A stretch of 62,360 nt of DNA, counting the filler, from Sphacelaria rigidula (taxonomy: Eukaryota): assembly GCA_964200075.2 (NCBI GenBank). It is 11 parts of 11 records of this genome, joined end to end, with 100 filler letters (N's around TTAATTAATTAA, not from the genome) between each part and the next. Parts side by side here need not be neighbours in the genome. Positions count along the whole stretch, not along the records: positions 51,105 to 56,682 come from CAXNAA020026161.1; 10 more parts are not named here. One strand, given 5' to 3'. Position 1 is the stretch's first letter. Every line of letters begins with the position of its first letter. Both the position numbers and the translations under genes were made by a program. Of this stretch, positions 1,497-57,699 are shown piece after piece. The notes beneath the pieces are model-generated. The model saw nothing but the letters and a program-made list of their open reading frames with translations, was not told where the DNA came from and did not search any database.

Positions 1497-4400
1497 CTAG
1501 CACCAATCCCCTACTTGATTCCGAGAGGTGTTCAAAATTTTCTCCAAACGCTGAACATTATGCCTCCTGCCGATGTCTAACATCCTCAGGGTGTGCGGTC
1601 GTCTTTGCAAAGCCGCATCCTTCTGAAGACCCATCACTTGGGCCAATTGCCACCCCTTCGTCTGCGTCAAATAGTAAATATAACAGTCGACGAGTTGCGG
1701 GTCATATATATGAGGACCAGCGGTGACATTGCCCCTTAGTTCATAGCCTTGAGCCACAAAAATTTCACCTCTTTCCCGAGCCTCCGCCCGTCTCGCCAAA
1801 TTCACTCGGTACTTCCGATACTTCGCATTATCCGGCTTTTCCATATTAGGGTTCCCCATCCAGTATGTTGAAATTACCCGGCCATATTGTTCCAAGTCCT
1901 CCTCGTGCTCCCACCTGGGTCTTTCCAGACTCTCCCAATATATTAAATATTGAACTGAGAGTTTTCCACCCAAACCACGGTTAAATGTAACGGAGGTGAT
2001 AGTTCCGAACATTGATCAACACATACTGACTTAAAACCCAGGGTGGAGATTTCGGCGGTTCCGGTTCATCTCTTGGATTAAAGCACCGCTTACATCTCAA
2101 CACAGAAACCCGGGGACTCATGATTGCTCCCGGCTCATTTTTCCTCAGCCCAAGCAACAGTAGTTTTTCTCCCACGATTTCTCCTTTGTCCGAAATACCT
2201 GGCCTTACCAACAAGATCTTATATGGCCCCCTCCAGGAGTGAGACAGTTTAGACGATATAACTGTTTTCCCCCCTTCCCTTACCGCATTTCCCCCCGACA
2301 TAATGGTACCTTTCGTATCATAGACAAATACCCAATTGCCTACTTCCCACTTTGGCTTTCGATTTAGAGCTTCTTCCACCTGCTCGTTATTCGACTCATG
2401 TTTGGATTTGATCAAGTCGTTTTCTTGTTTAACAAGGTCGTAAGCTTAAATGTGGCGATCCTTCAGCTGTAAATATGCCAGTTGATCGGCCTTCAACCCT
2501 TGATGTCCATACACACCTCTTCTCTCAAGGATAGTCATGGGTAACCTTCGATATTTCCCAATGTGAACCTCATTCGGCGCTAAGCCGATCCCTCTGCTTA
2601 CATTGTTGTTATGCGCAGATGTTGCGTGTAGTAATAGCTTATCCCAATTTTTCTGGTCATCAGCCACCAAATACGACAACATTTGACATAACGTGTGGTT
2701 TAGTCGCTTTACCATCCCGTTCGTTTGCGGATGATACGCATTCGTGTATCGTTTCACGGCTCCCAACATCGCATATACAATTCTTGCTCCTTTTGCTGTA
2801 AATTCCGTTCCTGGATCCGACAATAACGTGTGAGAACATCCCCATCTTGGAATATAGTCGTGCACCAGAATGTCCGCGCAACCCTCCGCTGTTTCCTCTT
2901 TCTTAGTAAGGGCATATGCTTCTGCATGCCTACTAAAAAGATCCACAATCAAAAGTATGTATGTATTTCCTTTCGTTCGTTTTGGTAGCGGACCCGGCAA
3001 ATCGAACGAAACCATCTGCCCTGGTTGACTCGGCAGTGATAAGGAATTAAGTGGCCACCTTACTGTGTCTCTTGGATTTTTCCGAGATTGACATGAAAAA
3101 CGTGTATAACATCTCCTGATCCAGAATGTAGCACTGTCCTTCATCCCAATCCACCAGTGATACCGTTTCAACAAAGATAACGTGATACCTTCCCCCAAAT
3201 GAAAAGCTTCTTGGTGAGTTTGGTCCATTACCCAAGGTCTCAAAAGTAGCGGTACATACGTTCTGGTTGGCTCTTCTCCCAAATACCTCTCAAATTGTCC
3301 CGGGTTTCGGTTCAGTTGACTGGGCATCGGCGTCTGCTTCTTTGCTAATCATATATCTCCGTCCGATATTTCCAAAAGTGTTCCCTGTTTCAGTAATCTT
3401 TTTGAACTCGGACAGGTCAATTCGTGTGGGAACCCCCTTTTCTTGATCCTTCGTCAGTACCGTCACTCGTTTTTCAAATATTCGATGACTGTTCTCGACG
3501 TGAGATCTTCCTGCTGTATTTGAGCCCAATCGTTTGCCGATCTCTGACATGAACGTTCCCCACATGACAGGCTTATTCTGCTTCCAGAGTCGGTGATACC
3601 GTTGTTAATGGTTCCGCACTACTGCTTTCTACATCGGTTGTCGGTTCGATTACTGCCACGGTTCTGTGTTCATGCGGTTGTAGCAATCTCCTCCCTATTT
3701 CCGTGATCGGACATGCCTCCAAAATCAAACCTTTATCCCGTTGTCCCCTGACCATGTTGCCAATCTTTCGAGAAATTAACGGTGAGTCATCTGGTAACAC
3801 GTACGAAGACTTGTCCGCTTTTTCTCCTCCCACACGTGCATTTTCCCTGCCCTTCGCTCGTTGTAGCTTAATCCATCTTCGGTTAGCTTGTTCAGAGGTC
3901 GTGAGCGGTACTGCACTTACTTCCCTTTTCCCAATATTAAAAACCGATCCAGGGTCTAGCTCATTCAAGTTTGAATCGTGGGTACTCACTACCGATCCCA
4001 CGTGTCCATCCCCGGTCGAGTTTTTCAAAATTCTCGGCCATATTCCACCAGCGCCAATGAAATAGACATCCATGTCTCCCGGGTCCGTTATTCGGCCATC
4101 CCCAGATATATCATTATCATCCGGCGGCTGTAGTAAACGAGACAACATATCCGCATTCGCGTTCACGCGTCCTGGCTTGTACTTAATTTCATAAGTGTAC
4201 GCACTTAAGAAGTCATGCCAACGCTGAACCCTCGGAACCTTTTCTGCAAGGCTCAATAAATTTCGCAAAGGTTGATGACCAGTGTAGATTTTAAACGGCA
4301 CTCCGTAGAAAAGTGGTCTGCGTTTCTTGATGGCCCACACAATAGCCGCTGCTTCTAATTCGGACACACTCCAATTTCTCTCGTTGGGGAGTGTTCCTCT

Positions 4401-5548
4401 ACTTAGGAAAACAAGAGGTCGAACCGTGTTATCTTCCTGGTTTTGTGTCACCACCGCGCCCAGACCATCCAGTGATGTATCCGTGGTGGGCATAAACGGT
4501 CGTTTCCCTGAAACTGCGTTTTCGTAGTTTGGAAAAGCTAAAACATTCTCCCCAGTCAATGATGATAACATTTCCTTGGGGATAGATTCATGTTCTTGGG
4601 TAAACTCAAAACGAACCCCCTTCTTTTGCAAGTGCGTTATAGGTTTGAGTCTCGCAGCCATTCGCGGAATAAATTTACGGTAGTACCCCAAACCTCCCAC
4701 CAATGATCTGAGCTGAGATACATCAGACGGCACTGGCATTTGTTTCAAAGCCTGTACCTTGTCCTGATCAGGAGAAATTCCCTCCGCGGAAATGTGATGC
4801 CCCAAACATTTCGTTTCTTTCATCCCAACATGTGCCTTTTTCGGTGCCAACTTCAGGTTGTACTCGGTCAGTCGTTGAAAAAGACCTTCCAAGTCCTCTA
4901 CATGTTGCCTGCTTCTTCCGCTGAAAGTACAAACATCGTCAATATAGAGTCGACATCGCTCCAAACCATCACATATTCTCGCCATAATTGCTTGAAACCA
5001 ACCTGGACTTCCACTGCATCCCATCGGCATAACTAACCATTCGTATAGACCACTTTGCGTGCAAATTGCCGTCAACGGAATCGAGTCTTGATGTATAACC
5101 ACCTTAAAATACCCTGAGGTGATGTCCAAACATGAAATGTTCTGGCACCCCCCAGTTCATCCAAAAGTTCCTCCATTATGGGAATTGGCAATACCGGAAT
5201 TATTGTACAATCATTCAACTTCTTGTAGTTACACGTGATTCCAATGGATCCATCCGCTTTGTTCACCACTACAAGTGGACTACTCCAGTTGGAATAGGAT
5301 CTCCCCAAGATGCCTACTGCCAGCATGCGATCAATTTCCACTTGTACTTTTTTGTAAACTGCCGGGTTATGACGGTACGGGCGCTGTTTAACGGGCCTCG
5401 TTCCTGGATTAAGTTCAATCTTGAACGGATCTACAGTGTAATACCCCAAATCCATCTTGTTTTTTGAAAATCGATGTGAATATTTGCGCAACAGTTCCTC
5501 ATAGTTTCCAATGTCCTCAACTGAGTGATGCTGCGATAGGGTCTGCAC
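1497..5548 (-). mobile_element. Ty3/gypsy (chromovirus-like) LTR retrotransposon pol, frameshifted: RT-RNaseH-integrase-chromodomain-extra C-terminal domain
   Basis: RT motifs: WSSPLVVV, GLYEWLVMPMG, LYIDD. RNase H: TDTSLDGLGAV, ELEAAAIVWAI. Integrase: H-H-C-C zinc finger, VSFDL..LLSDPG..YHPQTNG. Also GPY motif WRGPYKI and chromo-like QYLIYWESLERPRWE. Split over ORFs 5072-5548, 3573-5129, 2446-3327, 1981-2415 and 1497-2012. Confidence 0.95.
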
Positions 5549-22115: not shown

Positions 22116-22714
22116 GTTGCCGGGAATGATATCACTGCAAAGTTGGTGTACCCTGTTCCTGGCCCACAGAAAAGCCTTCCAAGCAAAAAAAAGCCTACAT
22201 TCTCGGGGCTCGGATTCCCGAATTTTTATCATTTACTTGCATTTTATTTAGGCTCGACCTGCCATCCCCCGAATTTTTTTTGGGTCACCATCCCATAGTA
22301 CACCCTAGTTGATAGCACTAACATGTAATGCTCGGGGGAAATTCGGGAATAAATGTACCCCGCTATATATGTGGTCATGTTCACAAGGCGACTGAATCTG
22401 GCATTGCTGTGGGCCGAGAGACGGAGCTAGAGGCATGAGTTCTGCGTATCCCTCTGTCGAAGTGGTACAAGCGGCGGTGAGGTCGTATGTAGTCGACGGT
22501 AACGAACTTGTGTGTAGGCAGCTGATCTCTGTCGCGGAGAATTGCCCAGAAGATGTGAGGGAGTATGCAGCGGCAGCTGCTGCTGCATGCGGAAGAGCGT
22601 GCTGCAATATACTCNNNNNNNNNNNNNNNNNNNNNNNNNNNNNNNNNNNNNNNNNNNNTTAATTAATTAANNNNNNNNNNNNNNNNNNNNNNNNNNNNNN
22701 NNNNNNNNNNNNNN

Positions 22715-25700
22715 CAGAATCTTCTGGGCTGCCTTCCAGTGGCTCTTCTTTGGCTCGTGAGAGTGCCTCGCCACCGCCCGCACAGCATTCGAGATGTCGG
22801 GCCTTGTCTGGTTGGCGATCCACATCAGGCTCCCCACCACCTCTCGGAACGGCACATCTCCTGCCCCCCCCATCCTCCATCAAGGACCTGTTATCGTTGG
22901 CAAGGGAAGCAGAGATTGAGCTGGTGCGAGAAATGTTGAATCTCTCGAGAACGCTCCTACTTTCTTGAGAGATCTCAATCGTGCCAGCCTCGCGGTCGCG
23001 AATAAATGCGCAACCAAGAAAGAACTTGACCTCACCCAAATTCTTCGTAGGAAGAGAGTCGCCTAGCGATTTCACTACCACCTTGGCAGGACTCATAGTT
23101 CCTGCATACAGTATTTCATCCACGTGAATCATGAGCATACCTACCACCTCGTCTCCCATCATGAAAAGCAGGACACAGGGGTCAGACAGAGACTGCTGGA
23201 AACCGATCCTTTTCGGGTCCGACACTAGCCTCTTGTAAAATGTTCTAGATGCCTGCATCAATCCGTACAAGTTCTTGTTCAAACGCACAACCTTTCCTGA
23301 CATCGAACCGCAGCCAGGGAGCAATTTCATGAACACCTCATGATCCAATACCGACTGAAAAAACGCTTGCTCAATATCCCAGTGGAGTAATTCCAAGTTG
23401 TACTTGCACGCCAACGCTACTAGCAATCGCATCGATACAGCATTTGCAGTTGGCGAGAAATTTCAAGATAGTCCACACCATACTTCTGCTTGAAGCCCGT
23501 CGCTACAAGCCTTGCCTTGGCCTTCACTATCTTCCGTATTTCGTCTGCTTTGTATTTGAAAACCTATCTAGCATCAATCACATTACAGCCTACTGGGATC
23601 TTCACTGCGAACGTGAACGTTCCTGCTCTTATCAAGCCTTCAACTTTTGCAGACATGGCTCTATCTCAAATCTTCGCGTGCTTCGATTGCCGGGCTTCTC
23701 GATAGCTACCAGGCTCTGACTCAACATTCTGAACGAGTTTGCGCACGAGTTCTACCTTCTCTTACTTCATCATTCTCACGCGCATCAGTATTAAAAGTAG
23801 CAAGCGACATGCTGCGGACGACGAGTGGCTGAAGGAGGAGCCTCCGCCTCTACTTCCTGCTCTCCCGGCCCAATCGGCTCTACATCACCATGCCCTCCCG
23901 GTCCAATCGACTTTACCTCATCATCCCCTCCCGGATCCGCCGTTTCTACTTCCCCTGTCTCCAGCCCTCCCTGCCCCCCCCCGTCTATCTCAAGTGGTGA
24001 AGAAGACACGGAGGGAACCGTCATAGTACAGGAGTTGTTACGGGCGAAGACGGTATAGAGGGGGAAGATGGAACAGAAGGGGGCTGGCCTACACTGCCTG
24101 CATCAACACTGCCAACCTCATCGAATCCTGCACCACGGGGTAACACTGCATCGCGATTCACACGAATACGAATGTGTTGAATTCCCCTTCCTGTAAGCGG
24201 CCATACTTCAGCTTCTACATCGTCGTCACTTTCCTCCCCTCCCTCTTCCGCGATCTCAATCGGCAGAGGAGGCTGCGGTGGAGGGAGCTGTGACGGCAAC
24301 GCCTCTCACGTCACATCTCTCGTTTCCTGAATAATCCCAGCCCTCGTAAGTATTCTTTGACAATCACGCGGGTGGTCTCTCGAAGGACCGACATAAAAGC
24401 AACTCTCACCTTTCGGTAGCAGCTTAGACGGCCGCTGCCACCTGCAGTAAGCCGGCTTCAAAAAACGGATACGGTCTAGCAGGATGAGGTTCTCCATACC
24501 ACATCTCATACAGCGACTTAAAGTCAGGGTTAGCAGAGCACGCTGTGTGGTTAAGTACCTCGCAAGCCCAGTGCATTCCCACAGCCCAGAGTCTGTCAGT
24601 CTTGGATAACTGCGCATGTCCAAATAGAACTTTCGCCTAAATACGAGCCGCCATAGCGGCCTCCTCAATCAATCCCAATCCACGCACTGCAACACCGTTA
24701 TATTGGGGACTGTAAGCCGAGGTGAAGTCTTGTTTGATCAAAAGCTCATTTCACACGGATGCAAATTCCCCCCCGAAAAACTCCCCTCCACTGTCAGATC
24801 TAGTGATCTCAACCAATGATGGGATTCCATCAGCACGCACACTAGCAAGAAAACTTCGGAAAGCACTCCCAGCGTCTGATTCACTTCTCAGGAAATACAT
24901 CCATACACGCCTTGTGAAATCATCCTTCACAACCATGGGGTATTGTTTACCCCCTACGGACGCAACGTCCTTCCTCCCTCCCAGGTCAACAAAAACTTTG
25001 CCCAACTTTTTATCTGATCTACGTTTAGTTTCATGAGCAATTCCTTTCCTACGACATCGAACATCCCGTACAAGCATGCACGTCACCGGTCAACTCGGTA
25101 CCTCGTTGTTTTACAGTATTACGAAGTAATCCCTCGTGTAAATGAGCATAAATGTTATGGAACTCGTTCACATCCATCTTCTTTTCATGCTTGGGGTTCG
25201 AAGGAGTGAGGGCAGCCAACGCCGAACTAACAGAGTCATCTTCCAGACGATACGCAGTCGCAATTAGCATGCCACTGAAGTTCTGAAAAGTAACATGTCC
25301 GTCGTAAGCAGTCATCACACCATCAAGACCACCAAGACCATTCCATGACCTGCCATCAAACTCTGCGCTGGGGGGAAAGATGTTATACTCTAAGTTGGGA
25401 GAGCACAACACGTTCTCCAACTCTACGGAAAATTCGCTGTCAGCAGTCACAAACACCAGCTCCAGTGTTCCAGAAAGTGCTACCTCATAAGTCACGCCAC
25501 CAATCCCGTTTACGTTCTTGTGGCAAGGCTTTACATCCTTCGTACAATAGAGAGAATCAGTCATGTGGAACGCAGTACCCATGTCTGCATACCAATCTTC
25601 GACACACCTATCCTTCCTTACAAGAGAAGAGAATTCACGAACAGCATCATCACTGAACAAGCATTCACGCAGCATGGCATCGTAAAATGCCGCCAGACAC

Positions 25701-26881
25701 GTCAGATCACTCGAGTTGTTCAAGCTGGTTTGAGAGAGCAACACCAAACTAGACCTCTCGCCGTTCTCATCCTCGGCATTCTCGGATTTTCCGGTCTGGG
25801 TACGTAGGATTAGCGATCACGCGAGCCAGGCAATCCTTCCTCAAGTGACCCTTCTCTCTACGAACGATGGATCATTCGGACACAACACCACAAGAGTTTC
25901 ACGCAAAGTTTTGTACTCGTGCGACAGTCCCTCAAGCATTAGGTGCACACAACCATAATCTTTCTTGACTTCAATATGTCAACCATCAAGGGTCCACATG
26001 AAACGGTACCTCGCCCAGGGACATTACTGGGGTCGTATATAAACCGGAATCTATTGCGCCGCTATCTTGCTACAGTCAAAACCCATAACGAAACAAGCAG
26101 CTAGATTACTGGCAGTATAAAATTTCAACAACAGTATGATGTTGGTAAGTCGAAATCAATGTCTGCAATCGAAATTCAGCTTCAGAAACAAACGCCTCAT
26201 ACAGATTGTTGTATCACTCAACAGAAAGTTCTGCGACCATGAGGGGTACGACACGTCGTTACCGTCAGAAAACAGGAGCATTGGGAACTTTAAAAAGAAC
26301 CCTACCCAACCTTCCTGTATCAGAAATGTTAACCCCAGGAATCGGAGGAATGACCTAAAGTCCCACCTACAGTCCCGATCGAACCAAAGTTTACTGCAGC
26401 AACAGAGGAACGATTTAAAGAAGATGCGTGTGGATTCAAGCCTGAGTCTGCAAGACTGCTACTCCCAACCCACATGCTTGACACGCCCAAGCCTTGGGTA
26501 TCGCCACCCATACTTCCCGCGGTCCCACCAGTACCGAATTACAGTAGATGCATGAGGATTCAAGCCTAAGTCTACACGACTGTTACTCCCAACCCACATG
26601 CTGGACACGCCCAAGCCTCGGGCATCGCCACCCGTACTTCCCGCGGTTCCACCAGTAGCATCGTCAGAAAGATGCAGACTAGTCTCTGGCCCGCTGCCTC
26701 CCGGCGCGACAGCTACAAAACCAGAGGACTTCACTTTCCTTCCCTGTTGCTCAACTAACGACGATTCTACAGTCATAAGTTGACACAACTGTGTCTCTAC
26801 AGAACAAATCCTCTCACCAAATTCTTGCGATCCACCCTCAGCTGGGTCAACCGCAGGATCCTTGTTCCCCAGTTCAGCCAT
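22715..26881 (-). mobile_element. Ty1/copia retrotransposon, degenerate gag-protease-integrase-RT
   Basis: Domains are in copia order. Gag: zinc-knuckle remnant KGHLRKDC (~25830-25860). Protease: WYADMGTAFHMT. Integrase: VFVDLGG..VKDDFTR..RSDSGGEF. RT: WDIEQAF..LNKNLYGLMQA..IHVDE and PFREVVGSLMWIANQTRPDIS. Confidence 0.93.
26423..26660. repeat. ~124-bp tandem duplication within the copia gag region
   Basis: GATGC.TG.GGATTCAAGCCT.AGTCT..A.GACTG.TACTCCCAACCCACATGCT.GACACGCCCAAGCCT occurs at 26423 and 26547. Confidence 0.85.
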
Positions 26882-39025: not shown

Positions 39026-39327
39026 GTCGCCCCGGTGGCTCAGTTGGTAACCTCGAAACCTCCTGACGGTTGGGTCGTGGGTTCAATTCTNNNNNNNNNN
39101 GTAGTGGGTACGAAAAATTCAACTTAACGGTCGACGAAGGAAAGGGACTGCTGAACCCCTCTCACAATAAAACAAAAAGGCAAGCACCGCAGGAGGAAGG
39201 TGGGGTACTAAAAACAAGTAAAAAAGAAAAAGCTCCTGTGTGGACCTTCCTCCTGTGTGCCCCCGGCTGATGCGCCGACATATATCGAAAGGTGTAGACT
39301 GGCGTCCAGAATAGATTGGACAACACA
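39026..39327 (+). mobile_element. tRNA-derived SINE copy (contains a 10-N gap)
   Basis: Head GTCGCCCCGGTGGCTCAGTTGGTAACCTCGAAACC...GGGTTCAATT and conserved tail GGCTGATGCGCC...GAAAGGTGTAGACTGGCGTCCAGAATA. Confidence 0.85.
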
Positions 39328-47136: not shown

Positions 47137-50100
47137 TTTTGTACCTCGTCCGGACTCTATGAGTGGGTTCGAATGCCACAAGGTGCCGCCACTGCCCCGG
47201 AATGCTTTCAACGCTTAATGCAACGCGTCGCCGAGGGCCTCGAGCACATCATTATATACCTGGATGACGCTATCGCTTTCGATGCCTCACCTATTGTACA
47301 TTTCCGCACTCTACGAGAATTTCTCTCTCGCCTACGCACGCACGATTTGAAACTGTCTCAATCCAAAGCTCGTCTTGGTGCGACTGACTTGGATTTTTTG
47401 AGGCATTCCATTTCGCCAGCAGGCCTGCATCCGGATACAAAGTTAAGACGATGACTGACTTGCCGATGTCAACTAACATTTCTCAACTTCGCTCATTGTC
47501 GGGCGGGCTATCCTACTACCGCATTTTTTGCCGAATTTATCTAAACGGATTCGCCCCCTTACTGAGTTACTCAAGAAAGGAGGTGTGTTTTCCTTCAGAA
47601 GCGAAATGGAGAATATCGCCCGCGAAATACTCAAGACGCTTACCGAAAAGCCAGTACTCTGCTTTCCTGATTGGGGGGCAGTACAAGATGGCTCCTGCCT
47701 TTTCCAACTCCACACAGACGCCAGCACAAACGGATTTGGAAGAGTTTTGAATCAACCTCAGATTGATGGCTCCGTCCGACCCATCCTCTATATCAGCCGC
47801 GCTACCCTGCCCAAGGAGGCCAATTGGAGCCCCCTAGAACTCGAAGGCTGAGTAATCACTTGGGCCATTGAGCGTTGTTGACTGTATCTATTTGACGTGC
47901 CCTTTGAGATCTATGCAGATCACGGAGCACTCGAACAACTCGCCAAGGTTGGCTAACACAACCCGCGTGTACAACGATGGTTGGAGTTTCTCACAGGATA
48001 CCGGTATACCATTAAGCACCGTCCAGGCAAAACCAACGGGAAAGCTGATCTCCTTTCTCACTTATCCCTACCGCCTACGGCCGCAGATTCCAGCCCGGCT
48101 TGCCGTTTGACGGAACCCGATGGACCTGGAATTTACGCGATTGGACGTTTTTCAACGCCCGTTTACGCCCTCGACCTCCAGTGCCCGGAAACCGGTATGC
48201 ATATGGGAGGACCTCGCCCTCTACGATATGACGCCGTCTTGGGTGGGTTAAAGCCCACTACCTCCGATTTTGCCGATTTCCGCACTAACGGTACTCGCGC
48301 GAAGCTCTTCGCGGAGACACCTCCAGTCACCCACCTAATCTCCGACAACATCCGCTCCCAGTCTGCCGCCCGCACCACCCCGAGTGTGCCGCCGCCGCCG
48401 GTAACACCTACAAATTCCACGAGCCACGCAGCACAACTTCCACGGACCAGCACGCAACGCTCCGCGAAAACCCCTGCAAAGTGCACCACGCGCCACGGAC
48501 AATCTTCGCCGCGCACTGATACAGCCCCGCCGCCCATAACGGCGCCGCCAACATCTACCGCTCCCGAGCACGGAGCTGACGACTTAGCTCCTGCTTCCGG
48601 GACAGATATTGACGTCGGTATTCCTGCCCCGTCGTCTATTTCCCCGCCGCCTGCCCCACAATGTTTGGTCGGCTCGCCAGCGGAAGGTCAACTTCGCGAG
48701 CTTCTCGCCAGCTACTCTCACCGCGTTTGGGCTCCCGAACAAAACGCAGCAGCGCTATGTCGCGCAGCCATCCGGTACTTACAACTCGACCGTCTGGTCC
48801 AGTCCCGTTTCCATCCACACATCTGGCCCTGATTGGCACACTGCCACCACCAGTTATTTCTGACGTATACGAGCTCGTGCGCAAAGGCACTATTTTTACT
48901 ACGGATGACGGTGTGCAACTACTCGTGCGCCGGCACACGCCTTTGACAGGCGCAATTTCCGCCTCAACCACGGGACGCCACGCACGACTACTCGATAACG
49001 AGCCAACGCGCATATATGTCCCATTATTAATGCGCCCCTGGGTCATAAAAGGCTGCCACACAGACTTGTCATGTCACCTTGGCGTCACCCACATCCCAGC
49101 ACTCTTGGAACGCTTCTCCTGGTGGGTTGGCATGGAAATTTCCACCCGCTTCTGGATTCAGCGATGCTTCAAATGCCAAGCCCGAAAGACTTCACGACAG
49201 AAAGTACGCTGGCCCGTCATCTCTATGGGACTCCCCGACGAGCCAGGCCACCTCGTGTCCTTTGACTACTTTGGCCCTCTACCGACCACAGGTCGCGGCA
49301 ACACCTACATCTTACTCTTCACTGACCGCTTCAGCCGCCACGCGTCCATGTACGCGGTAACCGCCGCAGATTTCACTGCCGCCAGAACGGCCGACATATT
49401 GGTCCACGATTACATTAGTCACTACGGTTGCCCAAAGCGACTCCTTTCAGACAATGGTCAGCAATTTTGCTCAGATCTCTTTGATAAGCTTTACAAGCTC
49501 CTGGGCATCCGCAAAATTGCCACGAATGCCTATCACCCGAACGGTAACGGTGGTACCGAAAGAGTTGATCACACCATGGCCCAGATGCTCTCTATGGTTG
49601 TCAATGACCGCCAAAATGACTGGGACCTACATCTCTCGCACATCATGTTGTCCTACAACAACTCGATTAACGCCGCCACAGGCCTTTCTCCGAACGAAAT
49701 CCATCTTGGACATTACCCTCGGCTGCACATCACCGTGTTTGAGCGCTACACGTTCGACGGCCACCAAGGGTTGGATCAGGATCAGATATCCTACCACGAG
49801 CTAGCGCATGCACGACAACGCAAAGCGCTAACCCTCGTGCGCGAACAACACGCTATCAACGCCTCGCGCCTAGAGAGGTCTAACACTGCTCTCTATAACC
49901 TCATGCACAAACGCCTCAAATGGAAAATTGATGATTGGGTTTGGATCTACAACAGTTTGTCGACCATCCGCCAAGGCACCAGCAAGGCAGCCAACGAAAC
50001 AACTTTGAAAACAAAATTGTCCCTCAATTGGACAAGACCATTCAAGATCCTGACAGTCGGACCATCGTCATCACCACTGGATATAAAACCCGTTGGTGAC

Positions 50101-50893
50101 AAACTGCTCCATCTCGACTTGCCTCGCGACCTCCATGGCAAGGACACCAAGCCCCGCGTCTCCGTGCACAGATGCAAACCCCGCACGAACCCGCCTGATA
50201 CAACTGAAATGCCCAAGTACCTGCCTGCCGAACTCACACAATATGTTCTCAACAGCTACTCGACCAAGTCCCCGCCCTACCATGCTACAACCGACGACAT
50301 GACGGAACAGCCCCTTCGATTGACCGTGTCCACCATCTCTGGCCAACAGATAACCCGTGGTCGAGGTGGCAAAACTGCTGTCATGTACTTCGTATAAGAC
50401 ACGCTGGCAAGGTCTCCGCAGAGCGTCTTGGGAACGCAAATCCGACCTTCAATTGCACCGCCGTGCAATCCTCCTTTACTGGACGCAATCCCAACATCAG
50501 CATCTTGCTCACAACAAGAAATACCGCAACATGCGTCGTGGCGCACCAGCCCGCGAACTTCACTGCGATCAGAGACTACGCTTCGTCGCCGATGGTTACG
50601 AACTTGTACTCACCAAGACTTGTAAGGCTAAGTTCTTCGCAAACCAGCGAATACTGCCCAAGGGAAGCTACCTTTGGTTCAAAGGCAGCGATAACCTCTG
50701 GTAGTTGGGTCAGACCCACTCCGCTAACCTGGTTTCGGCCGACACATACATCGTGCGCTTCATCGATGACCCTGGACCCATGCAACTCAAGCTTCGGCCA
50801 GCACTATACACCACCAGCCCATCTGGACCACGCGGATCCTGGTGCCTCCAGCGCAACATCGATCGCATCCACGACGTCCGCGCCCCGCTTTGA
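47137..50893 (+). mobile_element. Ty3/gypsy (chromovirus-like) pol, degenerate: RT-RNaseH-integrase-chromodomain-extra C-terminal domain
   Basis: Motifs: GLYEWVRMPQG, IYLDD, LHTDAS.NGFG, NWSPLELE, CH..CHLG..CFKCQARK, VSFDYFGP, LLSDNGQQF, YHPNGNGGTE, NWTRPFKI, YKTRWQG..SWE and RGSWCLQR. Confidence 0.95.
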
Positions 50894-51852: not shown

Positions 51853-52967
51853 TTCGGTCGATCGAGCCTGTCCCGATCATATTTAGGAAGAAATGTACAG
51901 TTTTATTTTTTTGAAATTCTACCTACCTATGGAACTAGAGCCGAAAAACTGTGTATCACGGTCAATAACACTCCTGAAAACGGGGAATATACCCGTTTTG
52001 CCCGGTAACACTAACTAACATTGGCGTGAGCGTTGTGTTTCGAGGATAATCTATGGATTGTACCAAAATTTACCGACGCTAGCAATTTCGAGTTCTATCG
52101 AAGAGTGGTACGCGAGAAAATCAAAAACATCCCTAAATAGTTAGACCGCCCACTACTGTACCACGCACACCATGTACACGCGATACGAGCCGAAAATTAT
52201 GTCGTGGAAGTGGCTAAAGCAAGCATCAGGTAACCCGACATATGAACTCACGTGTGGTTGAAGTGGAAACTAGAACAATACATAACTGTCAGCTCCCACG
52301 GTACCCGATATGACAAGACAGATGATGACATTCAAGCATAGGAGCACGTGTGCGCGTGTAATACGATTCGGCAGATATGTTTCCTTTTGTCGCGTGTACA
52401 TATACCAACTTCGGTATCGAAATCGATAGATCTTGCTTTCGACGGTCGCTTGTACCGCTGTTGAGAACGAAGGACATCCCTCTTCTATTTATATCTTGTA
52501 ACCGTGAAATAGAACAGGATCAAACCAGGCCAGTAGCTCGGAACGTGATCAGGCATCTTCGAGTTCAGGACGATTTCCCTAACTTTGTTGGTGTATATGA
52601 TCTCCCTTAACGTCGTCAGGCATTCTGCCGGTGTGGAGCAACTTCCCGAAATGTTCGCAGGTGTTCCTCAAGGCCTGAACTGTGTAATACTGCATGTATC
52701 ATGTCCGGTGAATCACGACTTGGTATTATGCGGTCAAGCTCGTCTGCTTTCCTTGACCTCTTGTATCCTTTCAGTGTTATATGTACTTCAGATCCATACT
52801 GCCGTATTGGTGAGGAAGTCCCATTCGCTCAAATCACCTTGGGCACTAGAGTTGTAGTCGTGACGATCAATGTATGTAAAACGTTATTCCAGTAGGTGCA
52901 GGTAGTTCCTCTCCTTCCCGTTGATGTGCGACGATGGCGTTCTTTTTCAACCCGCTTTCTCCTGCAG

Positions 52968-55906
52968 CTGACAGGAGAACCCTCCGGTGTTTTGCCAACT
53001 GTGCTACCGCGAACGATAACTTCTCTTCAGAACCACCGCGCGACCGAGCTGATGGCCCGCGTGCCAGAGAGTGCATCAACGAGGGCTGCTCGAAGCGCCC
53101 GAGGTATGGTGTAGCGGGAAGCAAAAACGCGGAGTTCTGCTCTGAGCATGCCAGGGCGGGGATGGTTGATGTGGTGAGGAAGAAATGCGGCGACGAGCGC
53201 TGCCTGAAGAAGCCGTCGTATGGTGTAGCGAGAAGCAAAAACGCAGAGTTCTGCTCTCAGCACGCCAGGGCGGGAATGGTGGATGTGGTGACAAGGAAGT
53301 GCGGCGACGAGGGCTGCTCAAAGCAGCCGTCGTATGGCGTAGCGGGAAGCAAGAAGGCGAAGTTCTGCGCCCAGCATGCCAGGGCGGGAATGGTGAATGT
53401 GGTGAGCAGGACGTGCGGCGATGAGGGCTGCTCGAAGCAGCCGTCGTATGGCGTAGCGGGAAGCAAGAAGGCGGAGTTCTGCGCCCAGCATGCCAGAGCG
53501 GGAATGGTGAATGTGGTGAAGAAGAAATGCGGCGACGAGGGCTGCTCCAGTAGGCCGTCGTATGGTGTAGCGAAAAGCAAGAAGGCGGAGTTCTGCTCTC
53601 AGCATGCCAGGGCGGGAATGGTGGATGTGGTCCACCAGACGTGCGGCGACGAGGGCTGCTCGAAGAAGCCGTCGTTTGGTGTAGCGGGAAGCGAGAAGGC
53701 CATGTTCTGCTCTCAGCATGCCAGAGCGGGGATGGTGGATGTGGGGAGGAAGAAATGCGGCGACGAGGGCTGTTTTAAGAACCCCTCGTATGGTGTAGCG
53801 AGAAGCAAAAACGCGGAGTTCTGCTCTCAGCACGCCAGGGCGGGAATGGTGGATGTGGTGACAAGGAAGTGCGGCGACGAGGGCTGTTTTAAGAACCCCT
53901 CGTATGGCGTAGCGGGAAGCAAGAGGGCGGAGTTCTGCGCCCAGCATGCCAGGGCGGGAATGGTGGATGTGGTAAGCAGGACGTGCGGCCACGAGGGCTG
54001 CTCGAAGCAGCCGTCGTATGGCGTAGCGGGAAGCAAGAAGGCGGAGTTCTGCGCCCAGCATGCGAGGGCGGGAATGGTGAATGTGGTGAGCAGGACGTGT
54101 GGCGACGAGGGCTGCTCCAGTAGGCCGTCGTATGGTGCAGCGAAAAGCAAAAACGCGGAGTTCTGCGCCCAGCATGCCAGGGCAGGGATGGTAGACGTGG
54201 TGACTAAGAAATGCGGCGACGAGGGCTGCTCGAAGAGGCCGTCGTTTGGTGTGGCGGGAACTAAGAAAGCCGAGTTCTGCTCCCAGCATGCCAGAGCGGG
54301 AATGGTCGATGTGGTGACTAAGAAATGCGGCGCCGAGCGCTGCCTGAAGAAGCCGTCGTATGGTGTAGCGGGAAGCAAGATGGCGGAGTTCTGCTCTCAG
54401 CATGCCAGAGCGGGGATGGTGGATGTGGTGAGGAAGAAATGCGGCGACGAGGGCTGTTTTAAGAAGCCGTCGTATGGTGTAGCGAGAAGCAAAAACGCGG
54501 AGTTCTGCTCTCAGCACGCCAGGGCGGGGATGGTGAATGTGGTGACAAGGAAGTGCGGCGACGAGGGCTGCTCAAAGGAGCCGTCGTATGGCGTAGCGGG
54601 AAGCAAGAAGGCGGAGTTCTGCTCTCAGCATGCCAGGGCGGGAATGGTGAATGTGGTAAGCAGGACGTGCGGCGATGAGGGCTGCTCCAGTAGGCCGTCG
54701 TATGGTGTAGCGAAAAGCAAAAACGCGGAGTTCTGCTCTCAGCATGCCAGGGCAGGGATGGTAGACGTGGTGACTAAGAAATGCGGCGAGGAGGGCTGCT
54801 CGAAGAAGCCGTCGTATGGTGTGGCGGGAACTAAGAAGGCCGAGTTCTGCTCCCAGCATGCCAGGGCGAAAATGGTGAATGTGGTGAGGAAGAAATGCGG
54901 CGCCGAGCGCTGCCTGAAGAAGCCGTCGTATGGCGCAGCGGGAAGCAAGATGGCGGAGTTCTGCTCTCAGCATGCCAGAGCGGGGATGGTGGATGTGTTG
55001 AGCAGGACGTGCGGCGACGAGAGCTGCTCCAAAGGGCCGTTGTACGGTGGAGCGGGAAGTAAACAGGCGGAGTTCTGCTCGAAGCATGCCAGGGCGGGAA
55101 TGGTGGATGTGGTGACAAGGAAGTGTGGTGACGACCGCTGCTCGAAGATGCCGTCGTATGGTGTAGCGGTAAGCAAGATGGCGGAGTTCTGCTCGAAACA
55201 TGCCAAGGCTGGGAGGGTTCATGTGATGAGCTACAAGTCTAGCATAGAGGCACGCTTGAAATTGGATATTCTCAATAACGACAACCTTGATAAGGCAATA
55301 GTATGCCGACAGTATCCCACTGCGCATGAAGTAGCTAGAGTATACGACATGGAACACCCCAGCTCTGAGGAGGCCACCTTCACCCGCACCACAAGCGGCG
55401 GTGGTGAAGGAAGTAGCAGCACAGCCGACGGTGGGGGAGGAAGCGTTGCTGGCGTCCGAGGAACAAAACGTAAGCGCGCACCATGCTTGAGTTCTTGTAC
55501 AAGCAACGTCATTGATACTCGACGTAGTGTGTACCCTCTTGCCGGGCGTAGTGGTGTAACACCACTGTCACTTCCGGGCCAGCTACCCTCAGGGACGGAT
55601 CGTGAGGTGTCTTCCATGCCAAGGATACAAGCAGGAATAAAGATGGAGATGACAGCTCCCTCTCCTACACATGGTGGCACTGGAAAGGGGGAGTGTAGCG
55701 AGCATACTGACCCTTTGAAGGGTTGGAGCAGTGCAGGTGGTAAGAGTAGCTCCAGCAGCAGCAGTTGTGGTGTAAGTGCGGGACGGCTATGTGGGTCGCC
55801 GGCAGTTGTATGTGGGTCTGTTGGCGGATCTGTCGGTTTGGAATCAGTAGAGACGTTGGGGGGTTCAAGCGTGAAGTTGGAGCTAGGAGTGGCGTCCGAC
55901 AGGTGA
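52968..55906 (+). CDS. EsV-1-7 cysteine-rich repeat protein (19 x 38-aa C-x4-C-x16-C-x2-H repeats) with a low-complexity C-terminal tail; probably a terminal exon
   Basis: Intact 990-codon ORF (52934-55906). The repeat consensus CGDEGCSKxPSYGVAGSKKAEFCSQHARAGMVDVVxxx matches the EsV-1-7 family. A polypyrimidine tract plus CAG acceptor at 52965-52967 suggests ATG 52934 is intronic. Confidence 0.92.
53072..55237 (+). repeat. Coding tandem array, 19 x 114 bp
   Basis: Exact 114-nt periodicity without indels, from TGCATCAAC (53072) to TACAAG (55237). Confidence 0.97.
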
Positions 55907-57699
55907 CGGACAGTGCTGTTCCTTGTACTGATCTTGTTTAGATTACGCGGGGAGTATGCTAAACGCCAGCTTGCACGGCCCGCCCCCTCGACCGGAACGT
56001 GGCTGGTACGGATTGGTTTGCTCTCTCGATGCGGAGGAGCTCGTGAAGCTGTGGGGTCCTGATATCCCGATTCTATGTTCCACCAGTGTGTCGTAGATTT
56101 TTGGTTTGGACACGTGTGATCGCCATGTGTCTTGCAGTCATGTGCCGAGAGCTGCCCGAAGGTAGATGCACTATGGAAGTCGACCACCCAATGAACCGTG
56201 ACACTGCTGTTTACGTACAACTCATGCAGCAAATATGTCCAGCTCTCTACAGATGATGCAGTGCGATTTTCGAGGTATATGTCTCAAGCAACACGATAAA
56301 AGCACACGGAGAGAGTCCTTCGACTCGTCATCCTTGTTCATTTCACACTTGTATCCCAAACCACAGCGCAGGTAGTGTCTCACATGTATGTACGGACGAT
56401 GTAGCCTTATTTCGTCGTTCCCGTGGAGGTATACCGAAGCAGTGCTGTAAATAGGCTCCAGGCTGTATTTGCGGGAACAGCGACATTTTGGAGATATATT
56501 CCAATCTTCAAATTGGTTGTTGTCTCAGTCTATTCCAGATTCGGCTATAGATTTCTGTGACAGAAAACGCTCTCGTTTTTTCGGAATACTTTTAAAAAAA
56601 CAAGAGAACTCTTTGAAAAACGAGCAGAACGTTTTGAAAAACTGCTAGAACCATGACCCCAATGTCTTGAGGCCAGGCCAGTNNNNNNNNNNNNNNNNNN
56701 NNNNNNNNNNNNNNNNNNNNNNNNNNTTAATTAATTAANNNNNNNNNNNNNNNNNNNNNNNNNNNNNNNNNNNNNNNNNNNNGTTGTGTTTTCGAAAAAC
56801 ATCCACGAGTGCACTCGTCTCGACGAGTGATGACTCGTCCGACGTATGGAAATTTCGAACATGAATGACGGGTGCCTCGGTCATCAATTGTTCAATTTTC
56901 CCGACGGCTTCATCATGTTCCGTAGTCTAGAGTTTTGAAACTTGTTTCGCCGCTTTTTGTTTTGCACAACATCCAGGTGCTACGTCTCAACCAGATGTGA
57001 CCGGATGAACTCTTGGAGGGATAATAGGCGGTTTCAATTTGGAATCAACAGCAACTGCTTATAAAATTGTTGTTGATTCTGGCGGCAGGTTGAACATGAG
57101 TCAACATGGAATGTAGCGTTACCGATTCAATGGGGATACGGCGCAGAATGTAGCATGATATGATCCTTAACAAGTTGAGCTTCATTTTTTACGATGATGA
57201 ACCCTTGTCCGGTGTATCGCTTTCTGGACGGCTGTAATAAAGGCTGCTTAGGAACCAACTCTCATCGTGCTCTTCTTCAGCTTCTGCTTTATCCTAGTTG
57301 TGTACTTTCACGTCACAACTGGGGACTGTTTTGGTGCCTCGCCGGAGGAGTTAATGTACTGACTAGGAAACCCGCTTCTCTCCGATATTTTTCACCAGAT
57401 TGTTGGCACTTTTTCTCCATTGCATGCGTACTGAGGTGTGAAATATTAACCTGTCTGTAGTTTTCAACTCCTCTCAACTTGTGAGCTGGGATGCCGTAAG
57501 ACTGTCCGATACACCTCGTTCTAGAGCTTGCTAAATGGTGGGGAATGACAAGGTAGTGCATTCGCAGGTTGGGTATAATCTTTGTTTTTGCTATTTCGAG
57601 TCACCGCCTTTCCAGAGGTCGGCCTGTTTGATTAGTTGCCGTGCTTATTGCACTATGGTGGTCAAAAGCTGGTAGATAAGTGTGGCTTCCCTGCTTGAC

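Follow-up and report, generated by a model that had tools for sequence, protein, structure and literature searches.

The EsV-1-7 proteins of brown algae and Nucleocytoviricota (PF19114 / IPR043822), among them Ectocarpus IMMEDIATE UPRIGHT (IMM), are built from tandem repeats of about 38 amino acids (aa) in which three cysteines and a histidine recur at the spacing C-x4-C-x16-C-x2-H. In the excerpts of published accounts that we drew on, the family is described as a possible novel class of zinc finger whose function is not known, lineage-specific expansion is reported within it, and IMM is given five repeats. No ligand is named for the repeat in the literature searched, in agreement with a preliminary description of the locus treated here. 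That locus lies in a window of 62,360 nucleotides (nt) from Sphacelaria rigidula (assembly GCA_964200075.2); the window is the whole stretch of DNA that was analysed and joins 11 parts of 11 records end to end, parts which need not be neighbours in the genome. Within the part taken from CAXNAA020026161.1 there is a gene for a protein with 19 repeats of the same spacing and period and, as in the family according to those excerpts, without any other Pfam domain. The preliminary description had proposed that each repeat reads one or a few nucleotides, which would make the protein a programmable nucleic-acid-binding array.

Two kinds of modular DNA-binding array invite comparison. C2H2 zinc-finger arrays (e.g. 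KRAB-ZNF) likewise consist of tandem zinc-type modules with a constant ligand scaffold and few variable positions, have grown by repeat duplication and form basic proteins. Their fingers show the spacing C-x2-4-C-x12-H-x3-5-H and a beta-beta-alpha fold with a recognition helix, whereas the S. rigidula module is of the Cys3His type, has a 16-residue gap and is predicted to be beta/coil. C2H2 arrays have a constant, TGEKP-type linker; in contrast, the linker is among the most variable parts of the array described here. The repeats of transcription activator-like effectors (TALEs) of Xanthomonas also form long, indel-free arrays of same-length units with variation at fixed positions. They are helical units of ~34 aa arranged in a superhelix, nearly identical in DNA, and vary at essentially two adjacent residues. 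The S. rigidula repeats are instead predicted as strands and coil with a predicted template modelling score (pTM) of 0.28, differ by ~20 of 114 nt (~82% DNA identity) with a proportion of synonymous differences (pS) of 0.33, and vary at eight or more positions, the linker included. The likeness to TALEs that had been suggested is therefore not borne out.

We find that the gene is an intact, genuine and unusually long member of the known EsV-1-7 family. Its product is probably a multivalent recognition scaffold with recently amplified Cys3His modules, rather than a TALE-like code of one repeat to one base.

The 19-repeat array and its modules

Tandem Repeats Finder reported one array (53079-55238, period 114, 18.9 copies, 83% matches, 0% indels, score 2730), which in the open reading frame (ORF) resolves into exactly 19 indel-free units of 38 aa (Table 1). 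Pfam PF19114 (EsV_1_7_cys) matched the protein in 19 stretches (E 1.2e-299, 966.1 bits against a cut-off of 25), and the C-x4-C-x16-C-x2-H spacing is present in every unit. Thirteen columns are invariant in 19/19 repeats (C1, C6, P10, G13, A15, A20, F22, C23, H26, A27, A29, V32 and V34), the four putative ligands C1, C6, C23 and H26 among them. Both the 19 indel-free repeats with their invariant C/C/C/H, P and HA scaffold and the assignment to EsV-1-7, as set out in the preliminary description, were thus confirmed by repeat finding, translation and the Pfam match. The array is unusually homogeneous for the family (84% mean column identity) and has a net charge of +58 and a pI of 9.35; its period of 114 bp fits the tandem spacing of the family, in which relatives mostly have repeats of 37-39 aa. 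Apart from PF19114 no Pfam domain was found in the protein and no Pfam C2H2 model matched. Rows for Phe_ZIP, DUF1490 and Response_reg were discarded as repeat-driven noise, with no stretch passing alone or with scores below the cut-off. A six-frame scan of the window with a hidden Markov model of the repeats detected no EsV-1-7 copy outside the array.

Each unit is a small Cys3His module that, judging from its invariant ligands, presumably binds zinc. AlphaFold2 modelled eight repeats from a 42-row alignment with a mean predicted local distance difference test score (pLDDT) of 76.6 and a pTM of 0.28, and two repeats from a 77-row alignment with a pLDDT of 82.9, a pTM of 0.53 and the same secondary-structure elements. 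DSSP assigned short strands to positions 12-14 and 31-33 in 6-7 of the 8 repeats and in both units of the 2-repeat model; the remainder is coil, with 3-residue helical turns and no helix of four or more residues. Along the unit, the C-x4-C knuckle leads into positions 7-9, the turn that connects strand 1 to F22 includes 16 and 19, and the linker into the next knuckle is made up of 36-38, which by DSSP and sequence order places the variable sites in loop and linker segments. The individual modules are predicted with fair confidence and the arrangement of the repeats is not, and the superhelix lined by variable sites that had been envisaged cannot be claimed for beta/coil modules at this pTM. 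A sequence search of solved structures with six repeats as the query gave nothing below E 0.88, and Foldseek searches of the PDB with the 8- and 2-repeat models gave no match at E <= 0.001 (best E 0.86-1.0, to the nsp13 zinc-binding domain). The best match of the wide VIA-align search was a weak one to the IDOL RING (Z 2.2, root-mean-square deviation 3.4-3.9 over 49-50 residues). From these sequence and fold searches, no known fold can be named for the predicted module.

The array consists of about three copies of a block of 5-6 repeats, with diverged edge repeats (1, 18 and 19). The mean distance between repeats is 13.1 nt at lag 5 versus 17-21 nt at other lags. The tight groups {2,7,13}, {3,9,14}, {10,15} and {12,17} show 4-7 nt differences versus an average pairwise difference of ~20 of 114 nt (~18%). 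Three copies of one block amount to far fewer independent repeats than 19. Some near-identical repeats, for example 12 versus 17 and 3 versus 4, differ by a whole linker triplet, which argues for exchange of segments among repeats.

Table 1. Coordinates of the EsV-1-7 gene and its parts along the window
Feature	Position	Strand	Remarks
Single ORF, 990 aa, ATG to TGA	52934..55906	+	46-aa N-terminus, 19 EsV-1-7 repeats and 222-aa tail
N-terminal 46 residues ahead of the array, putative start	52934..53071	+	In-frame stop codons upstream
Array, 19 x 114-bp (38-aa) units	53072..55237	+	C-x4-C-x16-C-x2-H spacing
Repeat 1, diverged edge repeat	53072..53185	+	18-28 nt differences to every other repeat
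Repeats 2-6, superunit copy 1	53186..53755	+	nt distances 2-7 = 7, 3-8 = 10, 4-9 = 9
Repeats 7-12, superunit copy 2	53756..54439	+	nt distances 7-13 = 4, 9-14 = 7, 10-15 = 5, 11-16 = 11, 12-17 = 7
Repeats 13-17, superunit copy 3	54440..55009	+	From the nucleotide-distance matrix; linker triplets swapped as blocks
Repeats 18-19, diverged edge repeats	55010..55237	+	18-31 nt differences to all others
C-terminal tail, 222 aa	55238..55906	+	Conserved in a subfamily of EsV-1-7 proteins
RGTKRKRA, basic motif resembling a nuclear localization signal	55457..55480	+	Conserved across the tail subfamily
IKMEM, hydrophobic-K-x-E motif	55637..55651	+	Conserved; MKVEL or IKVET in relatives
VKLEL, second hydrophobic-K-x-E motif, near the C-terminus	55871..55885	+	Conserved

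Antisense ORFs of 399, 261 and 183 aa also run through the array (53318-54517, 54572-55357 and 53827-54378, all on the - strand). Their periodicity is that of the array, and they appear to arise from the absence of stops in the repeat rather than to be genes.

Variable positions in the array and across the family

Variation within the array is concentrated at fixed positions, as had been proposed. Per-site entropy is highest at position 9 (2.47 bits), followed by 36 (1.98), 19 (1.92), 16 and 37 (1.48 each), 3 (1.34), 7 (1.22) and 33 (1.17), and it exceeds 1 bit at eight or more positions (3, 5, 7, 9, 16, 19, 33, 36, 37). Position 9, directly before the conserved proline, reads R,K,Q,Q,R,K,N,N,Q,R,R,K,K,E,R,K,K,G,M in repeats 1-19, and the triplets following the second cysteine are SKR, LKK, SKQ, SSR, SKK, FKN, FKK, SKE, SKG and SKM. 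Position 19, before AEF, holds K in eight repeats, N in six, M in three, and R and Q in one each. The linkers are RKK, TRK, SRT, KKK, HQT and TKK, with SYK in the last repeat. The four residue lists of the preliminary description are correct.

Nei-Gojobori counts over all pairs of the 19 repeats gave, over all codons, a pS of 0.329 and a proportion of nonsynonymous differences (pN) of 0.125 (pN/pS 0.38). The 28 quieter codons have a pN of 0.057 and a pS of 0.314; these scaffold codons are under purifying selection (pN/pS 0.18). For the 10 variable codons the values are 0.310 and 0.377 (0.82), and for positions 9, 19, 36 and 37 they are 0.394 and 0.337 (1.17). The comparison of rates that had been suggested as a check upheld constraint on the scaffold and placed the variable sites near the synonymous rate; these values are compatible with neutral evolution of the sites, which the preliminary description itself had named as an outcome that would refute its reading. 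The marginal excess of position 9 over the bootstrap pS, at sites chosen post hoc, is no evidence of positive or diversifying selection.

The residues found at positions 9 and 19 have a simple explanation in their codons. Position 9 uses AAG, AGG, CAG, AAC, GAG, ATG, GGG and CGC, and position 19 uses AAG, AAC, ATG, AAA, AGG and CAG; all codons at 19, and all but GGG and CGC at 9, are one-step neighbours of the lysine codon AAG. The spectrum of R, K, Q, N, E and M is thus mostly (position 9) or wholly (position 19) the one-step neighbourhood of AAG and is therefore no evidence for base contact, as which R, K, Q, N and E had previously been read.

Family-wide comparison gave a different kind of evidence. 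Library searches returned 78 relatives similar in length, the best with 52% identity, and, at E <= 0.001, 3611 representatives; among the best 150 of the latter the largest number of repeat stretches is 14, so that 19 repeats is long. Across 494 repeats of the 78 proteins (404-490 residues per column), C1, C6, C23, H26 and M31 are invariant or near-invariant, some 20 positions are variable, and residues at 8, 18, 19 and 37 are predominantly basic. Of 39 arrays with at least 7 repeats, 19 have position 9 among their three most variable sites, and position 7 comes next with 15; position 9 is also in the top three in 7 of 11 arrays with at least 55% internal identity.

Conservation between homologues was assessed in 10 close pairs, nine of which are all those with 60-93% identity over at least 75% of their length among 214 proteins (Table 2). 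Positions 9, 35 and 36 differ between repeats and are mostly retained between homologues, and homologue identity is higher at position 9 than at position 7 (Fisher's test, p = 3e-5). In P0019-P0022, two of them from named Ectocarpus species, the four proteins agree at position 9 (Y,R,I,L,Q,H,R) and differ among themselves at positions 7, 25 and 29. In the array of P0079, position 9 toggles between Q, H and R and nearly all other positions are constant. P0079 (2055 aa), in which 11 nearly identical EsV-1-7 repeats accompany ubiquitin hydrolase (UCH, DUSP) and zf-MYND domains, may be either a true fusion or an artefact of merged gene models.

Table 2. Residue identity at selected repeat positions, between close homologues and between repeats
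Position	Between homologues	Between repeats
9	0.80 (63/79)	0.16
36	0.80 (43/54)	0.16
35	0.75	0.15
11	0.75	0.21
25	0.59	0.17
29	0.54	0.24
7	0.47 (37/79)	0.14

Neighbouring repeats were compared in 1065 non-redundant adjacent pairs (from 1257). At most variable positions they share residues far more often than expected (+0.19 to +0.28 at 2, 14, 17, 21, 28, 7 and 29), and hardly so at 36 (+0.04) and 9 (+0.06). Position 36 and position 9 of the following repeat have a mutual information of 0.305, a value reached in 0 of 1000 shuffles (maximum 0.264), and after correction the pair ranks 46 of 2701; within the same repeat the value for 36 and 9 is 0.219, which is not above shuffles. The enriched pairs are H-R (51, 2.0x), N-Q (80, 1.5x) and D-I (14, 3.5x). 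As 36 covaries with the next repeat's 9 and not with its own, the functional unit may straddle the Pfam repeat boundary.

These comparisons lend real, if limited, support to the idea that the sites on either side of one knuckle, position 9 and positions 35/36, act family-wide as repeat-identity residues. Such a pattern would be expected of specificity determinants, or of residues in contact between repeats. The carry-over to the S. rigidula gene is suggestive only: its top variable positions (9, 36, 19) belong to the identity class, and the positions that drift fast in the family (7, 25, 29, 2, 14, 28) are nearly invariant here (pN 0-0.21, except 0.35 at 7).

Tail, giant-virus arrays and genomic surroundings

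The C-terminal tail is common to a subfamily of EsV-1-7 proteins only. BLASTP matched it to P0207 (67% over 222 aa) and to P0082, P0097, P0106, P0080, P0083, P0084 and P0180 (33-37%), and its conservation in EsV-1-7 relatives argues that it is real coding sequence. It is of low complexity, and Pfam assigned no family to it. A motif of the RG-KRKRA type recurs in the alignment of most of the 8 tail relatives. Classical nuclear localization signals (NLSs) follow the pattern K-K/R-x-K/R, and RGTKRKRA looks like such a signal by this consensus. A strongly basic protein with a conserved tail bearing an NLS-like motif would therefore most likely act in the nucleus. IKMEM and VKLEL, which are kept across the tail subfamily, resemble the SUMO-acceptor consensus, for which a hydrophobic residue followed by K-x-E is typical.

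P0081 in the library is a call of this protein from an internal methionine, with repeats 15-19 and the tail at 100% identity. It corresponds to residues 571-990 of the window protein and starts at Met31 of repeat 14; many relatives likewise open with 'MVNV...' within a repeat. Starts inside repeats indicate that EsV-1-7 arrays often lose units through truncated gene calls or collapsed assemblies, and that repeat counts in databases are underestimates.

A scan with the single protein found no viral relatives, and a scan of viral contigs with a degenerate motif found 125 EsV-1-7 loci. All 24 complete giant-virus ORFs examined are PF19114 arrays of the same repeat, in 5-11 units. In 23 of the 24 the array ends in one conserved C-terminal domain of ~185 aa with the invariant motifs RPD, E-x-D-E-x-x-H and F-x-R-x-N-P-D and four invariant cysteines ahead of them. 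The window protein lacks this domain and has its unrelated low-complexity tail with the NLS-like motif instead. In the viral arrays the positions flanking the conserved proline are the most variable, position 11 being in the top three in 12 of the 24 and position 9 in 8, whereas position 11 of the S. rigidula array is nearly constant (S in 17/19 repeats). Viral ORFs of 409-621 aa with 6-11 EsV-1-7 repeats and the ~185-aa domain lie at L023:1905-3275 (+), L014:1424-2794 (-) and 21 further loci. In the part of the published account that we drew on, an Ectocarpus Tc1/mariner transposase carries an N-terminal EsV-1-7 domain (PMC12477816). The transposase fusion and the fusion to the giant-virus domain are hints that the ligand may be DNA.

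The gene sits among decayed retroelement ORFs, in transposon-rich DNA. Fragments of long terminal repeat (LTR) retroelements were seen at 2446-5129 (-), 22659-23432 (-), 25049-25747 (-) and 48661-50397 (+); they encode an integrase core with an H2C2 zinc domain, reverse transcriptase (RT)/RNase H, a copia-type RT and a Pol beta-barrel. Nine sequencing runs contain the stretch, none of them listed as RNA, and an algae metagenome is among the sources. Contigs of four runs span the tail region 55238-56682 without any joint. Contig depth in runs X1 and X2 is 50-72 in the coding part and falls to 8 downstream, and in X5 and X9 it is flat at ~13-29; the drop in X1 and X2 past the coding part is at most a hint of expression, as the kinds of run are not known. 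Just downstream of the gene, at 56463-56609, summed contig depth reaches ~120,000 in X9 and 2,400 in X1 versus tens nearby, as would be expected of a dispersed element of ~100-150 bp present in very many copies; a search of 55900-56682 showed no inverted repeat. The window also holds 21 runs of N at 5580-56782, in pairs of 44 bases about every 5678 bases plus one 10-base run at 39091-39100, which look like regular masking, not assembly gaps.

Weighing the readings

It is hypothesized that the protein is a multivalent recognition scaffold. Its units, in each of which a C-x4-C knuckle and a C-x2-H turn are combined with two short strands and a basic linker, would bind zinc. Recent duplication of the 5-6-repeat block expanded the array, and repeats exchanged some of their linker segments; the protein would act in the nucleus, as its basic charge and the NLS-like motif of its tail suggest. 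Repeats differ mainly in the post-knuckle loop (9), in the turn of the hairpin (16, 19) and along the linker (36-38), and in so young an array these sites would have drifted about neutrally, by single-step mutations from lysine codons. Family-wide, a repeat would owe its identity, which is then retained, to position 9 and linker positions 35/36, with 36 coupled to the next 9 across the same knuckle. The patches that flank successive knuckles might in this way each make a slightly different contact with an extended ligand, for which nucleic acid or chromatin is the most plausible candidate.

Several observations weigh against this hypothesis. The variable sites of the gene change at about the synonymous rate (pN/pS 0.82 for ten sites to 1.17 for four); the bootstrap range of pS is 0.24-0.43, and only position 9 (pN 0.475), one of a set of sites picked post hoc, lies just above it. 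Array entropy is weakly related to the family identity index over the 26 non-scaffold positions (rho 0.33, p 0.10). No orthologue of this gene in which repeat-specific conservation might show was found in the searched protein libraries. In the homologue-pair test, which comprised just 10 pairs and used proteins only, one cross pair was added by hand and three pairs come from one four-protein set; three pairs have low identity at position 9 (P0026/52 3/8, P0065/69 3/8 and P0080/97 1/4). The covariation shuffles ignore relatedness. The location of the variable residues derives from sequence order and DSSP only, and a pTM of 0.28 gives no confident geometry between repeats. For the viral C-terminal domain Pfam returned no consistent family, PHROGs nothing and a PDB profile search a best E of 0.47; none of the three identified it as a nuclease.

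Plain drift would explain the variable sites as the least constrained surface loops of a young array, in a generic polycationic or protein-binding scaffold without per-repeat specificity. A pN/pS of ~1 at these sites, their location in loop and linker segments by DSSP and the recent amplification by block duplication all fit this account, as do the residues at 19 and all but two of those at 9, which are AAG single-step neighbours and chemically mixed (K, R, Q, N, E, M, G). However, entropy in the array shows no relation to the drift rate of the family (rho 0.03, p 0.87, 26 positions), and the fast-drifting positions of the family are nearly invariant here despite a pS of 0.33, so drift alone does not predict which sites vary; it would also leave the retention of positions 9 and 36 between homologues elsewhere in the family unaccounted for. 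We regard drift as a rather unlikely explanation on its own, although one to be taken seriously. Even less can be said for a decaying or transposon-borne pseudogene without function. The gene does lie among fragments with integrase, RT and RNase H ORFs, and no RNA run is on record, but its reading frame is uninterrupted over 990 aa, 2.1 kb of repeats included, its scaffold codons are under purifying selection and its tail is conserved in at least 8 relatives, which makes a pseudogene extremely improbable.

The same retained positions admit a structural interpretation, in which the linker packs on the next repeat's post-knuckle loop and positions 9 and 35/36 set the geometry of the array without touching a ligand. 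The covariation of 36 with the next repeat's 9, not within the repeat, and the position of both residues on either side of one C-x4-C knuckle in sequence would be expected on this account. Against it stand the mostly polar or charged nature of the residues (R, Q, H, K, N, S), the lack of a confident predicted inter-repeat geometry and the very young arrays of P0079 and P0010, in which position 9 diverges first and the linker shows no matching change, and we consider it doubtful.

A programmable reader in the manner of TALE or C2H2 arrays, recognizing one or a few nucleotides per repeat and possibly directed at transposons or viruses, appears improbable as well. Its position-specific variation is real, position 9 is recurrently the most variable in independent arrays and is kept between homologues, the coupling of 36 to the next 9 would fit a two-residue specificity patch, and the array is basic. 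The repeat is moreover fused to a transposase, according to the excerpt cited above, and to the giant-virus domain, for which one ESM Atlas cluster bears the automatic name 'Endonuclease (Fragment)' (score 0.91). In this gene, however, pN/pS is ~1 at the variable sites, the residue spectrum is the mutational neighbourhood of AAG, and variation extends over eight or more positions including the linker, unlike the repeat variable diresidues of TALEs or the constant C2H2 linker. Neither a helical solenoid nor a confident superhelix is predicted, and the link to transposon or virus sequences is limited to the location among decayed retroelements. Three copies of one block would also imply a quasi-repeated target, which counts against a programmable reader. 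The idea of modular recognition put forward in the preliminary description thus stands insofar as positions 9 and 36 differ between repeats yet are kept in close homologues (0.80 versus 0.16), and falls short in this gene itself, where the variable sites evolve near the synonymous rate in an array made of three block copies.

The multivalent scaffold of amplified Cys3His modules remains our preferred reading. A bolder proposal, which we hold to be a long shot, is that EsV-1-7 arrays are a further natural system of modular DNA or RNA recognition, whose unit is linker position 36 together with position 9 (and 11) of the next repeat, with N recurrently paired with Q and H with R. If this were true, a long, quasi-repeated sequence would be the target of the 19-repeat nuclear protein, and the same module would direct enzymes to DNA in giant viruses and in a Tc1/mariner transposon.

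As a member of its family the S. rigidula gene is ordinary, and the lead that it offers is family-wide, namely position 9 and linker positions 35/36. Because these vary from repeat to repeat, persist in homologues and show coupling across the knuckle, they are the residues to mutate or swap in binding assays. According to the portions of the published accounts that we drew on, no orthogroup in brown-algal genomes is larger than that of the EsV-1-7 genes, which reaches 335 members in a species; the family includes the developmental regulator IMM, and its molecular function is described as not known. If positions 9 and 35/36 are not specificity determinants, the repeat is probably a generic basic zinc scaffold; if they are, the family would be a new modular recognition scaffold.

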